A stretch of 62,896 nt of DNA, taken from NCBI GenBank assembly GCA_948466315.1, contig CAOJZZ010000003.1, forward strand, positions 1-62,896. Reading direction: 5' to 3'. Source of the DNA: an uncultured Mycoplasmatota bacterium (GTDB taxonomy: Bacteria > Bacillota_I > Bacilli_A > RF39 > UBA660). Numbering within the stretch: position 1 is the stretch's first letter; each line of letters begins with the position of its first letter. The notes under the pieces were generated by a model. That model ran no database searches. It saw nothing but the letters and a program-made list of their open reading frames with translations, and had not been told where the DNA came from. Shown in pieces: positions 1,373-5,403 of the stretch. The translations under genes and the position numbers were made by a program.

Positions 1373-1924
1373 TTATACAAATAAATAACTAGGTTTTTCA
1401 TAATCATTAGAACAAGTCTTTTCTTCTACGTATTTAGAAACTAAAACTATTCTTTGTTCAGATAAACTTTTTTGTACATCAATAATTCTTTGATTTTTAG
1501 AGCCTTTAAAGTAAAGATCATAACTCTTCTCTTGTAAAACAAATTTTCCATCAACTAAAACATCTATTTCCTTAAGAAGATTATAATGTTTAGGATTACG
1601 AAGCATCGCTTCATACGTATATCCTGTATAACACCATACATTAAGTCCCATCTCATGAGCTGCCTTACAAATAGGTAAACAAGCCTCACTCTGACATACC
1701 GGATCTCCACCTGATAATGTAATTCCATCCTGATTTTTTAATGCTTTTAATTCTTCTATAACATCATCAACAGAAACTAATTCTCCACCATCAAAATCAT
1801 GTGTACCTGGATTATGACAACCTAAACAATTATGAGGACATCCTTGTGTCCAAATAACAGTACGGATACCCTCTCCATCAACAATAGAATCAGATTGTAA
1901 ATCTGCAGCTAAACGGATTTTCAT
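1373..1924 (-). CDS. nrdG: Anaerobic ribonucleotide reductase activating enzyme (radical SAM)
   Basis: DSIVDGEGIRTVIWTQGCPHNCLGCHNP (CxxxCxxC), TLSGGDP, KGSKNQR; downstream of nrdD. Confidence 0.96.
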   Translation of the reverse strand: MKIRLAADLQSDSIVDGEGIRTVIWTQGCPHNCLGCHNPGTHDFDGGELVSVDDVIEELKALKNQDGITLSGGDPVCQSEACLPICKAAHEMGLNVWCYTGYTYEAMLRNPKHYNLLKEIDVLVDGKFVLQEKSYDLYFKGSKNQRIIDVQKSLSEQRIVLVSKYVEEKTCSNDYEKPSYLFV

Positions 1925-1925
1925 A

Positions 1926-2096
1926 CTAAGCAGCTTCTTCTTCTGATTTTAAAAGTTCTTTAACACCACTATGTTTAACACGATCTCTCTCCTCTGCTCT
2001 TTTACCATTGTTAAAACGAGATACATCACCAGCTAAATAACCAGTAACTCTTCTTATTCTTTCAAAACCTCTTCCTTCTCCTACAATTTTTTCCAT
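1926..2096 (-). CDS. 56-aa separately encoded glycyl-radical segment of class III RNR (MEKIVGEGRGFERIRRVTGYLAGDVSRFNNGKRAEERDRVKHSGVKELLKSEEEAA)
   Basis: Manual translation. AGGAGG RBS upstream of the ATG; RVTGYL radical motif and RFNNGKRAEERDRVKH NrdD C-terminal signature. Not in the ORF track. Confidence 0.92.
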   Translation of the reverse strand: MEKIVGEGRGFERIRRVTGYLAGDVSRFNNGKRAEERDRVKHSGVKELLKSEEEAA

Positions 2097-2135
2097 AATA
2101 TTATTCCTCCTTATTTCTTTATCTTTTATCTATAA

Positions 2136-4451
2136 TTATCTGCCACAGCACTCTGGAGCAGTAATTTGTTCAATAGGAACCCCCTCAAACTCATGTCGTC
2201 CACAACCAGGACAAACATCATTAATAACTCCTACATAACCACAAACTGGATCTCGATCAACAGGATGATTAACAGCACCATATCCCATTCCAGATTCCTT
2301 CATAATACGAACTATTTTCTCAAATGCATCTACATTAGAAGCAACATCACCATCTACTTCAATATAAGAAATATGTCCACCATTAGTAATGGTATGATAT
2401 GGAGCTTCTAATTCTACCTTCTTAGTAATACTAATATGATAATGAACTGGAACATGGAAAGAATTTGTATAATATTCTCTATCTGTTACTCCTTTAATTT
2501 TTCCATAAATTGCTCGATCCATACTTGTAAATCTACCTGCCAAACCTTCAGCTGGAGTAGCTAAACAAGGGAAATTCAATCTATATTTCTGAGTATACTC
2601 ATCACATTTCTTTCTCATAAAACCAATGATTTCTAATCCTAGCTTTTGACACTCTTCACTTTCTCCATGATGTTTACCTGTTAGAGCTTTCAAACATTCT
2701 GCAAGACCAATAAACCCAATAGACAAAGTACCATGTTTCCATACCTTTCTTAAACGATCAGTTGGTTTTAACTTTTCGCCATTTGTCCAAACCCCTTGAC
2801 CTAACAAGAATGGAAAGTTATAGCACCTCTTATTACATTGAACTTCAAATCTTTCTAATAACTGATCCCTAACTTTATCCATAATTTCCTCAAGTTCAGC
2901 ATAAAAAGCTTTCATATCTGCTTTATCTCTTTCCTTAAGAGCAATACCATGTTTAATTCCCAATCTAGGCAAATTAATAGTTGTCCAAGAAAGATTACCA
3001 CGACCAGTAACAGCCTCATGATCTGGTGAAGTAATATCTGCCATAACTCTAGTACGACATCCCATGTAAGCCACTTCTCTATCTGGATTACGTTCCTCAT
3101 AATAAGGAAGATTAATAGGAGCATCTAAAAATGAGAAATTAGGGAAAAGTCTCTTAGCAGATACCTGACAAGCTAATCTAAATAAATCATAATTAGGATC
3201 TTCTTTATTATAATTAACCCCTTCTTTTATTTTAAAAATAGACACTGGAAATATTGGTGTTTCACCTTTTCCTAATCCCCTGTCAACTGAATATAAGAAA
3301 TTTTTAATAACCATTCGCCCTTCTGGAGAAGTATCAGTTCCAAAATTAACAGAAGAAAAAGGAACTTGAGCTCCTGCTCTAGAATGCATAGTATTCAAAT
3401 TATGAATAAAAGCTTCCATAGCCTGTTGTGTAGCTCGATCAGTTTTTTGCATTGCCTTATCATATCCTAAAGAAAATATCTCTCTTATTCTAGAAGAACC
3501 TTTTTGATAATCTGTCAAATTAGAAAGTTCAAAAGCTATACTATCTAACTTATCAATTTCTCTAATTATCCTATCTATATTAATAATTTGCAAAAAGCCT
3601 TCTAAATCTAAGAAATCATAAAGTGTCTGTTTAAACTGTCTTTTAAAAGTTTTCAATACTCCTGGAGCCAAATAATAATCAAGTGCTGGTATAGCCTGAC
3701 CACCATGTTGATCATTTTGATTAGCTTGAATAACAATAGCCGCAAGTGAAGCATAAGTACTAATATCTTGAGGTGTTCTTACAAAACCATGCCCTGTATC
3801 AAACCCATTCTTAAACAATTTAGATAAATCAATCTGACAACAAGTAGTAGTTCCCATTGCCAAGAAATCCATATCATGAATATGAATAATTCCATCATCA
3901 TGCATACTAGCATACTCATGCTTCATTAAATAAGACTTAGCAAACTCTTTTGAAACAGTAGCACCATATTGTAACATTGTTCCCATTGAACTATTACCAT
4001 CAATATTAGCATTTTCTCTTTTTGCATCCTCTTCATTTGCTGACTTTAAACCCAAATTTTCAAGAGACTTTAAAAACTTATGAGTCTTTTTATCATCAAA
4101 GAAAGACTTTCTCGATTGATTCCTTCTTTCTCTATATTCTGAAAATGATGCATATACATCACTATAACCCTTTTTAGAAAGTTCATCTTCAATAAAATCT
4201 TGAATATCATCTATTTTAAACTTATCAACATCTACAGATTCCTTCTCAATTCTCTTTAATACTGCTTGATAAACTTTTTGTACATCTTTTGTAGTATATT
4301 TACGCATCTTTTCATCTTCATCAATATCTACCTCAACACTATCAAACCCCTTCTTTATAGCTAAAGCCACTTTAGTTTCATCAAAAGCAACCTTTTTTCC
4401 ATTTCTTTTAACAACTATCAAATTATCTAATTTATCACTTACTTCTACCAT
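2136..4451 (-). CDS. nrdD: Anaerobic ribonucleoside-triphosphate reductase large chain lacking the C-terminal glycyl-radical loop
   Basis: ATP cone (VVKRNGKKVAFD), IHIHDMDF, TTTCCQID, MGCRT, GRGNLS, YYTNSFHVPV, DRDPVCG..CPGCG. Start moved to ATG 4451 on the basis of a GGAGG RBS. Confidence 0.95.
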   Translation of the reverse strand: MVEVSDKLDNLIVVKRNGKKVAFDETKVALAIKKGFDSVEVDIDEDEKMRKYTTKDVQKVYQAVLKRIEKESVDVDKFKIDDIQDFIEDELSKKGYSDVYASFSEYRERRNQSRKSFFDDKKTHKFLKSLENLGLKSANEEDAKRENANIDGNSSMGTMLQYGATVSKEFAKSYLMKHEYASMHDDGIIHIHDMDFLAMGTTTCCQIDLSKLFKNGFDTGHGFVRTPQDISTYASLAAIVIQANQNDQHGGQAIPALDYYLAPGVLKTFKRQFKQTLYDFLDLEGFLQIINIDRIIREIDKLDSIAFELSNLTDYQKGSSRIREIFSLGYDKAMQKTDRATQQAMEAFIHNLNTMHSRAGAQVPFSSVNFGTDTSPEGRMVIKNFLYSVDRGLGKGETPIFPVSIFKIKEGVNYNKEDPNYDLFRLACQVSAKRLFPNFSFLDAPINLPYYEERNPDREVAYMGCRTRVMADITSPDHEAVTGRGNLSWTTINLPRLGIKHGIALKERDKADMKAFYAELEEIMDKVRDQLLERFEVQCNKRCYNFPFLLGQGVWTNGEKLKPTDRLRKVWKHGTLSIGFIGLAECLKALTGKHHGESEECQKLGLEIIGFMRKKCDEYTQKYRLNFPCLATPAEGLAGRFTSMDRAIYGKIKGVTDREYYTNSFHVPVHYHISITKKVELEAPYHTITNGGHISYIEVDGDVASNVDAFEKIVRIMKESGMGYGAVNHPVDRDPVCGYVGVINDVCPGCGRHEFEGVPIEQITAPECCGR

Positions 4452-4899: not shown

Positions 4900-5403
4900 C
4901 TAAAAAGTTCCCAAGGTATGATCATAATCAAAAATATAAAATATTTCTTGTTTTTTAGCTAAACTTTTTTTAACATCAATAATACAATGACTACTACCAC
5001 CTACATAATTTGACACAAAAGAAGAATTAAAACTAAAATCACCACCAATTAACACATCTAAAGAATCTAAAATAACACTAAATTTATTATTAATACTATA
5101 ATACTTAATAAGTTCTTCCCAATTATATTTTGTATAACACCAAATAGTTTTACTAGGAAATTTTTCTTTTACTTCTAAAAACAACTCAGCTACATAATTA
5201 CTATTTTCTAAAGAAAAAGGCTCTCCTCCTACTAAAGTTAATCCACTACATAAATCATTTTTTAGCAATGAAAACAACTCTTTTCTAACAGAATCATCAA
5301 ATAAAAAATCATTAACATAACTTTTCAAATCACTTAACCAAAGAACCACTCTAAGTCCATCACCATTAATCATATACTTCATATTTATACTACAATACTT
5401 CAT
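4900..5403 (-). CDS. Degenerate NrdG paralogue lacking the CxxxCxxC radical-SAM motif
   Basis: NGDGLRVVLWLS, GLTLVGGEPF, KTIWCYTKY, LDVLIGG and IIDVKKSL align with NrdG, but the Cys triad region is missing. Confidence 0.8.
   Translation of the reverse strand: MKYCSINMKYMINGDGLRVVLWLSDLKSYVNDFLFDDSVRKELFSLLKNDLCSGLTLVGGEPFSLENSNYVAELFLEVKEKFPSKTIWCYTKYNWEELIKYYSINNKFSVILDSLDVLIGGDFSFNSSFVSNYVGGSSHCIIDVKKSLAKKQEIFYIFDYDHTLGTF

Follow-up and report, generated by a model that had tools for sequence, protein, structure and literature searches.

In the current analysis we have identified a class III ribonucleotide reductase (RNR) whose catalytic protein, NrdD, is encoded as two separate polypeptides in an uncultured Mycoplasmatota bacterium (contig CAOJZZ010000003.1; the 62,896-nucleotide (nt) stretch that was analysed is referred to as the window). 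A 771-residue large chain without the glycyl-radical loop is followed by a 56-residue small chain that carries the loop, and this in turn by nrdG, the gene of the activase. The two chains very probably form a functional two-chain class III RNR, as judged from their sequences. Such a layout is common to most NrdD-bearing relatives of the organism and to many phages. The best overall explanation of the observations is considered to be a working two-polypeptide class III RNR with an exchangeable radical subunit, which we hold to be somewhat more probable than the other readings combined. A first-pass annotation of the window had proposed that the enzyme is constitutively two-part, and this proposal is strongly supported by the conservation of the layout, purifying selection, independent reading frames of the two genes, the lack of another RNR and the occurrence of phage homologues.

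Organisation of the operon and site of the cut

All coordinates of the nrdD locus refer to the window and to its minus strand, on which the gene order is nrdD, the small open reading frame (ORF) and nrdG. The large chain (2136..4451, 771 residues and a stop codon) begins with the residues MVEVSD and ends with ...DRDPVCGYVGVINDVCPGCGRHEFEGVPIEQITAPECCGR. It matches positions 1-533 of the 562 positions of the Pfam family NRDD (E-value 1e-185) and the NCBIfam model NF005497 with 981 bits (cut-off 764). Its content includes an ATP-cone, which is the allosteric activity domain (residues 12-111; 4119..4418; PF03477, E-value 4.5e-11), a ten-stranded barrel and a predicted zinc ribbon, and the RxxGY glycyl-radical loop is absent from its 771 residues. 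The codon at 3057..3059 specifies Cys465 of the motif MGCRTRV, which is the finger-loop cysteine and the predicted radical acceptor, the role being assigned by homology with NrdD structures (PMC11226230). The zinc-ribbon segment (2202..2243) contributes C737, C747 and C750 in the arrangement DRDPVCG...CPxCG that is common to the fused relatives. The predicted ribbon thus has three conserved cysteines, and the first ligand position is an aspartate (the Asp of DRDPVCG) in split and fused relatives alike. It had been claimed in the first-pass annotation that nrdD ends after DRDPVCG..CPGCG..ECCGR without the radical motif, and the claim is confirmed.

The junction between the two genes (2097..2138) has been read directly from the sequence. 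The TAA stop of nrdD (2138-2136) is followed by TTA, a second stop TAG (2132-2130), an A-rich stretch and an AGGAGG ribosome-binding site (RBS; 2111-2106) located 9 nt upstream of the ATG (2096-2094) of the small ORF. The spacer from the nrdD stop to this ATG is 39 nt long and consists only of the elements listed, with no mobile element. In the window nrdD and the small ORF share one reading frame, with two stops between them.

The small chain (1926..2096, 56 residues and a stop codon, TAG at 1928-1926) has the sequence MEKIVGEGRGFERIRRVTGYLAGDVSRFNNGKRAEERDRVKHSGVKELLKSEEEAA and comprises the glycyl-radical loop RIRRVTGYL and a C-terminal NNGKRAEERDRVKH helix. The codon at 2040..2042 specifies Gly19, the predicted radical glycine, by homology with Gly711 of Prevotella copri NrdD (PMC11226230). 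The small chain matches the Pfam NRDD profile at positions 533-562 (E-value 1.8e-7, 30.6 bits, cut-off 26.2). As the large chain covers positions 1-533 of the same profile, the two ORFs tile the family model of 562 positions with nothing missing, which is well outside what chance would give, and the NCBIfam search agrees with Pfam on this tiling. A single nucleotide separates the stop of the small chain from the ATG of nrdG (1924). The nrdG gene (1373..1924) encodes a radical SAM activase of 183 residues with the motif CPHNCLGC (CxxxCxxC), matched by TIGR02491 with 157.6 bits (cut-off 126.1). All the elements of the junction described by the earlier annotation, from the TAA-TTA-TAG triplets and AGGAGG to the ORF that ends 1 nt before nrdG, are therefore present. 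The three genes are presumably co-transcribed; scans for a promoter, a terminator and an NrdR box gave nothing above chance. About 450 nt upstream of nrdD a 167-residue paralogue of NrdG without CxxxCxxC is encoded (4900-5403, minus strand). As a general partner of the split enzyme this paralogue was discarded, a second NrdG-like gene being confined to about 21 of the 120 related loci, in a subclade.

The closest solved structure is that of P. copri NrdD (8P23; E-value 1e-174, about 40% identity). In the alignment, residues 9-708 of this protein correspond to 13-756 in the large chain, and its residues 708-740 to 12-44 in the small chain. The glycyl-radical domain of P. copri NrdD, made up of the zinc site, the Gly711 loop and the tail, spans residues 676-739; its mobility is high, and it is no longer visible once dATP has bound (PMC11226230). 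From the alignment and these domain limits it follows that the cut lies inside the glycyl-radical domain, leaving the zinc ribbon on the large chain and the loop and tail on the small chain. A read-through fusion of the two chains, with the stops replaced by Gly, was modelled with AlphaFold2 on an alignment (referred to as A2) of 47 NrdD sequences, split and fused. The model has a mean predicted local distance difference test score (pLDDT) of 86 and a predicted TM-score of 0.82, the core of the small chain being at a pLDDT of about 70-80, and its best Foldseek match is again P. copri NrdD (8p2s_B, TM 0.90). No confident position is obtained in the model for the tail of the large chain that follows the zinc ribbon, where the pLDDT is about 70 at residues 751-760 and below 50 from residue 761.

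Conservation of the divided layout and selection on both chains

The 56-residue protein was searched against 5.8 billion proteins with E-values up to 1e-3, and 1805 clusters (at 90% identity) of small homologues were obtained, the best 120 listed being 53-79 residues long. An exhaustive HMMER search of representatives at 50% identity gave 1881 hits, of which the best 150 are all of 45-206 residues. Named clusters are few; they belong to metagenome-assembled genomes (MAGs) labelled 'Bacilli bacterium' and are annotated either as hypothetical or as 'anaerobic ribonucleoside-triphosphate reductase'. The first-pass annotation had cautioned that similar ORFs may already have been annotated. The caution is justified as far as public MAG annotations are concerned, which hold such ORFs as 'hypothetical protein' or under the name of the reductase, but no paper that describes them was found.

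Near-identical large chains of 771 residues are found more than 100 times in independent assemblies from ENA, Logan, NCBI and JGI, in part on contigs longer than 1 Mb. In the family to which the window belongs, the Gly loop is found in 153 of 301 genomes, and a match to the NrdD Gly loop was not found in the other 148. Among the approximately 150 listed matches of the family, the loop lies in a small frame in about 114 and in a fused frame of about 790-820 residues in about 36. Order-level genomes that are at least 85% complete give 62 split as against 15 fused cases. The carriers live in the gut, are uncultured and have genomes of about 1-1.5 Mb; they are variously labelled as Bacilli, Tenericutes, Mycoplasma sp. 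CAG:877, Ca. Faecimonas and Ca. Onthousia, and probably represent the RF39 group.

When the break point was mapped across genomes, as the first-pass annotation had suggested, 76 of the 80 best-matching species-level loci turned out to be split. The distance from the stop of nrdD to the ATG of the small ORF in these 76 loci ranges from -13 to 51 nt with a median of 26, an RBS-like motif precedes nearly every start of the small ORF, and in 72 loci nrdG is the next gene downstream. The three possible frames of the small ORF relative to nrdD are occupied in 21, 26 and 29 loci. On this sequence evidence the small ORF is a separate gene and is not the product of a recoding event.

Both chains are under purifying selection. 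The core of the small chain (37 codons, 25 genera) has a ratio of non-synonymous to synonymous substitution rates (dN/dS) of about 0.15 at a dS of about 1.1, and the tail of the large chain, which is conserved in 25 genera, has a dN/dS of about 0.40. The expected invariant positions have all been retained in A2, on both sides of the cut. They are N147 and N149 (the NxN flap), C204, C465 and the three zinc cysteines in the large chain, and R16, G19, Y20, E35 and R39 in the small chain, which correspond to R801, G804, Y805, E820 and R824 of the fusion.

The genome of the window, a 71%-complete MAG, encodes a single NrdD and this is the loop-less one; the small chain is hence a constitutive subunit. 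A search of the same MAG with PF02867, the family of class I and class II RNRs, gave no match at that completeness. The same search gave no match in 10 high-quality genomes with the split layout, two of them on a single contig, and the split enzyme is accordingly the only recognisable RNR in these genomes.

Tail duplicates and phage copies of the small chain

The large chain does not end at the zinc ribbon but extends into a tail, HEFEGVPIEQITAPECCGR (2139..2195), which aligns with the segment ...RTEADGVKFERI... of fused relatives and with VGEGRGFERI of the small chain. The split large chains in general end with ...CPGCGR[KH]E[GF]EGV.[LMI]E[KR]I...C.C followed by the stop, the fused relatives read ...CPGCGRTEADGVKFERIRRITGYL..., and the small chains have a variable start rich in Lys and Glu followed by VGEGVGFERIRRITGYL. 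The matching motifs indicate that the tail of the large chain is a diverged copy of the approximately 10 residues that open the conserved core of the small chain. It is referred to below as the relic tail.

A pair of cysteines (CC or CxC) is observed in this tail, in the window at 2139-2153 (ECCGR) and in the homologous tails of loci L021-L045 and L093-L172. At least two cysteines are present in the large-chain tail of 77 of 92 distinct split pairs, and none at this place in the fused relatives. The pair may form a metal site, or may be redox-active in the manner of the tails of class I and class II enzymes. An intermolecular clasp between cysteines of the large-chain tail and of the small-chain C-terminus was considered and rejected, no coupling between the two being found and only 12 of the 92 small tails having at least two cysteines.

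NrdD proteins with two complete radical segments in tandem have been identified in six rare clusters from other lineages (P0122-P0124 and P0391-P0393; locus L252, 4001-6484). In P0124, whose gene precedes nrdG on a 49-kb contig, the first copy starts with RKEGEGAPVERI, like the tail of the split large chains, and the second with TGEGVGFERIRR, like the small chain. The two copies share 86% nucleotide identity and an identical core protein sequence, so that both are under selection. From their sequences the tandem-domain proteins resemble a stage that came before the split, and they may be 'two-shot' enzymes. The anatomy of the split is explained by an origin in which the radical segment was duplicated in tandem, the upstream copy lost its loop and decayed to the relic tail, and a stop, an RBS and a start were gained between the copies.

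Stand-alone small chains have also been identified in prophages. In the genome G211 a prophage-like region, in which RusA and a DNA invertase are also encoded, holds a second small ORF that is an orphan, and three further genomes have orphan small ORFs in regions of shared gene order. The order comprises a small ORF with the motif YISKYDTKF, an ORF of about 210-235 residues, the small NrdD ORF and a serine recombinase in divergent orientation. The ORF of 210-235 residues is presumed to be a small terminase; no PHROG family matched it. The orphans in (pro)phage regions are found at L031 (4001-4168), L165 (3992-4171), L166 (3980-4153) and L167 (3980-4228), and also in L062 and L069. The split operon is present as well in all four host genomes with prophage orphans.

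A scan of IMG/VR yielded 32 loci, 28 of which encode a stand-alone Gly-loop protein of 44-205 residues with no large chain within 6 kb. The neighbours in the sampled viral loci include terminase, portal, major head protein, protease and RusA. Examination of 21 whole viral records, among them 8 that are at least 90% complete, 1 with terminal repeats and 3 proviruses, revealed the small piece as the sole NRDD match, and NrdG in none of the 21. Phage records that encode the small chain alone thus number at least 21. Among GenBank phage records the stand-alone piece was found only on unannotated faecal contigs. These phage orphans make it likely that the small chain acts in trans.

A scan of phage nrdD genes has in addition revealed large chains that are cut at the same site and end in a similar relic tail, for example CGRHDGEAVSEEKLRQIKKNIL followed by the stop. 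The small ORF of 49-129 residues follows the large chain directly or lies behind an inserted gene. This was checked in 12 loci, all of them split; with near-duplicates counted the number is 17 of 80. A longer phage form of the small chain, with 87-129 residues, is encoded at L085 (2199-2489), L200 (4082-4345), L203 (3309-3578), L204 (4446-4835) and L076 (5842-6126), and occurs both as an orphan and beside truncated phage NrdDs. A Pfam search with its N-terminal part (e.g. ...ITPDGDFVDLKYEF...) gave no match; this part might take the place of the zinc ribbon. Further nrdD loci of phages are enlarged, or have breaks elsewhere (L221, L234 and L236, with ORFs of 1153 residues; L222 and L229; L216, L217, L227, L245, L247 and L248), and these are probably intein, intron or endonuclease insertions of the kinds known from the literature.

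Proposed exchange of the small chain and alternative explanations

In the proposed mechanism the ATP-cone and the zinc ribbon would come from the large chain, together with the catalytic barrel and its thiyl cysteine C465, and the G19 loop and the C-terminal helix from the small chain. The small ORF would be translated from its own RBS, with nrdG coupled to its stop. NrdG would generate the radical at G19 while the small chain is either free or docked, and the loop would then plug into the barrel beside C465 as it does in a one-piece NrdD. As the small chain is not tethered, it could leave and be exchanged, and an untethered chain that has left would be replaced by another. Oxygen is known to destroy glycyl radical enzymes by cleavage of the chain at the radical glycine (PMC8683613, PMC13450708). 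After such cleavage the cell would have to remake a peptide of 56 residues and not an enzyme of about 800. Phages could supply their own small chain to the large chain and NrdG of the host.

One-piece class III RNRs such as those of P. copri (8P23) and phage T4 (NrdD, 1H79) share with the present enzyme the ATP-cone, the barrel, the finger-loop cysteine, the zinc-ribbon segment, the RxxGYL loop, the C-terminal helix and the adjacent nrdG. They differ in that the cut made here separates the Gly loop from the zinc ribbon, a relic tail with a pair of cysteines is added to the large chain, and the small chain is translated from a start of its own and has a brief N-terminal extension.

Small spare-part proteins are known for pyruvate formate-lyase, namely the Escherichia coli protein GrcA (YfiD) and phage T4's Y06I (PMC8683613). 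Like the small chain they are small free-standing proteins that consist solely of the segment with the radical glycine, phage-encoded versions exist of both kinds, and activation by the activase of the parent enzyme is presumed for both. The domain of GrcA overlaps a strand that is retained in the cleaved lyase, which is reminiscent of the duplicated segment here. The small chain differs in matching only PF13597 (NRDD) and not PF01228 in a Pfam scan with E-values up to 0.1, and in its size of 56 residues, YfiD being a protein of 14.3 kDa (PMC8683613). Since its parent large chain has no radical loop, the small chain is obligatory and not a repair part as GrcA is. A role as a cheap, replaceable part that aids recovery from oxygen, as suggested in the first-pass annotation, is plausible by analogy with GrcA and agrees with the orphan small chains of phages. 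Faster activation of the free peptide by NrdG is a possibility as an alternative benefit.

Catalytic subunits of RNR encoded in two consecutive ORFs that give an active assembly are also known from class II, in NrdJa and NrdJb of Pseudomonas aeruginosa (Crona et al. 2015, as cited in PMC9669993). These differ from the present enzyme in the use of B12 and not of a glycyl radical, and in that NrdJb is a large folded C-terminal domain and no radical carrier of 56 residues; PF02867, the family of class I and class II RNRs, gave no match here. Phage nrdD genes in pieces include that of T4, with a group I intron and I-TevII, and those of Aeromonas phage phiAS4 and of the Jug phages. A 91-residue nrdD fragment of a Jug phage shows no evidence of splicing to its neighbour (PMC12880540), and the fragmentation in phiAS4 has been left unexplained (PMC3653736). 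Those cases are ascribed to introns, inteins or homing endonucleases and are seen as interrupted genes, whereas here the spacer is short, the break is fixed just before the Gly loop, and a bacterial lineage has kept the layout as its only RNR. Whether glycyl radical enzymes other than pyruvate formate-lyase have spare parts is raised as an open question in recent reviews (PMC13450708, PMC8683613), and a review of 2026 names the formate lyases as the only ones with spare-part proteins. Full-text searches of the literature returned no class III RNR with the Gly loop on a chain of its own and no spare part of NrdD type.

That exchange or replacement of the small chain is the advantage for which the split was selected is suggested tentatively, the chances of it being slightly below even. 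The most serious alternative is neutral fission, in which the two chains would form an obligate, permanent heterodimer fixed by drift in gut bacteria with small genomes, with no benefit in repair, exchange or activation. Such an origin would agree with the fact that the two pieces sum to a normal NrdD, with the coexistence of fused and split forms in the family and their interleaving on the tree, and with the tight operon coupling to nrdG, which suits assembly at 1:1; other functional fissions of RNRs are moreover known, such as NrdJa/NrdJb (PMC9669993). It is at odds with the (pro)phages that carry the small chain without a large chain or NrdG, since such orphans are sensible only if the small chain acts on a large chain encoded elsewhere. 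The recurrence of the same break point in bacteria and in diverse phages and the conservation of the relic tail with its cysteines also speak against drift. Neutral fission is considered less likely than the two-chain enzyme with an exchangeable subunit, though it is a serious competitor and by some distance the strongest.

Several observations weigh against the preferred explanation. The operon form has no intact parent enzyme to repair, unlike the system of GrcA. The hosts are strict gut anaerobes with reduced genomes, which makes neutral fission a real alternative to a spare-part role. The docking interface is not resolved by the AlphaFold2 model, in which the pLDDT is below 50 at residues 761-790 of the fusion, that is, in most of the tail, the linker and the start of the small chain. 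The split state is, finally, not cleanly monophyletic on the NrdD tree, on which 2-4 changes are needed and the fused L054 nests with the split L043 (support 96/95); a single origin of the split is therefore not borne out.

Recoding or splicing that would yield one chain, by read-through, frameshift, bypass or a split intein, is highly improbable. The two ORFs are in frame in the window, as read-through would require, but across the 76 loci the frames 0, +1 and +2 are about equally frequent, 1-4 stops are present in the gap, the genes sometimes overlap, and translation of the small ORF can begin from an RBS and an ATG that belong to it alone. Read-through, frameshift and bypass are rejected on these grounds. 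A split intein is rejected as well, the non-homologous extras (a tail of about 15 residues and 10-25 residues at the N-terminus of the small chain) being too short, and so is an intron, for which the spacer of 39 nt is too short. Least credible of all is a pseudogene or an assembly or sequencing error, which the in-frame position of the small ORF behind only two stops and the incompleteness of the MAG might suggest, given the independent assemblies with near-identical large chains, the prevalence of the split among the best-matching loci, the low dN/dS, the retained invariant residues and the lack of another RNR.

The exchangeable small chain may be taken together with the phage copies and the tandem domains in a broader reading, which is offered as a possibility that falls just short of being probable. 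Small glycyl-radical proteins of NrdD type would then serve class III RNRs in general as an exchangeable 'radical cartridge', and would be the first case of a system like that of GrcA beyond the formate lyases. A protein of about 50-130 residues would be armed by NrdG, would plug into any compatible loop-less large chain, and would be discarded and replaced after cleavage by oxygen. Phages that encode only the cartridge would keep the large chain of the host making deoxyribonucleoside triphosphates in the course of infection, and the cartridge itself would have arisen by tandem duplication of the radical segment, the duplicated state persisting in the rare two-loop NrdDs.

With a detachable radical protein of 56 residues and cartridge-only phages, the question of spare parts becomes directly testable with three small genes. 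The small chain may also serve as a minimal substrate in studies of radical installation by NrdG and of the movement of the loop into and out of the barrel. The small gene is overlooked or wrongly named by annotation pipelines. A concrete route by which an enzyme may shed a cofactor-bearing segment as a subunit is provided by the relic duplicate together with the tandem-domain NrdDs, and the enzyme concerned is the sole recognisable RNR of a large group of uncultured gut bacteria.

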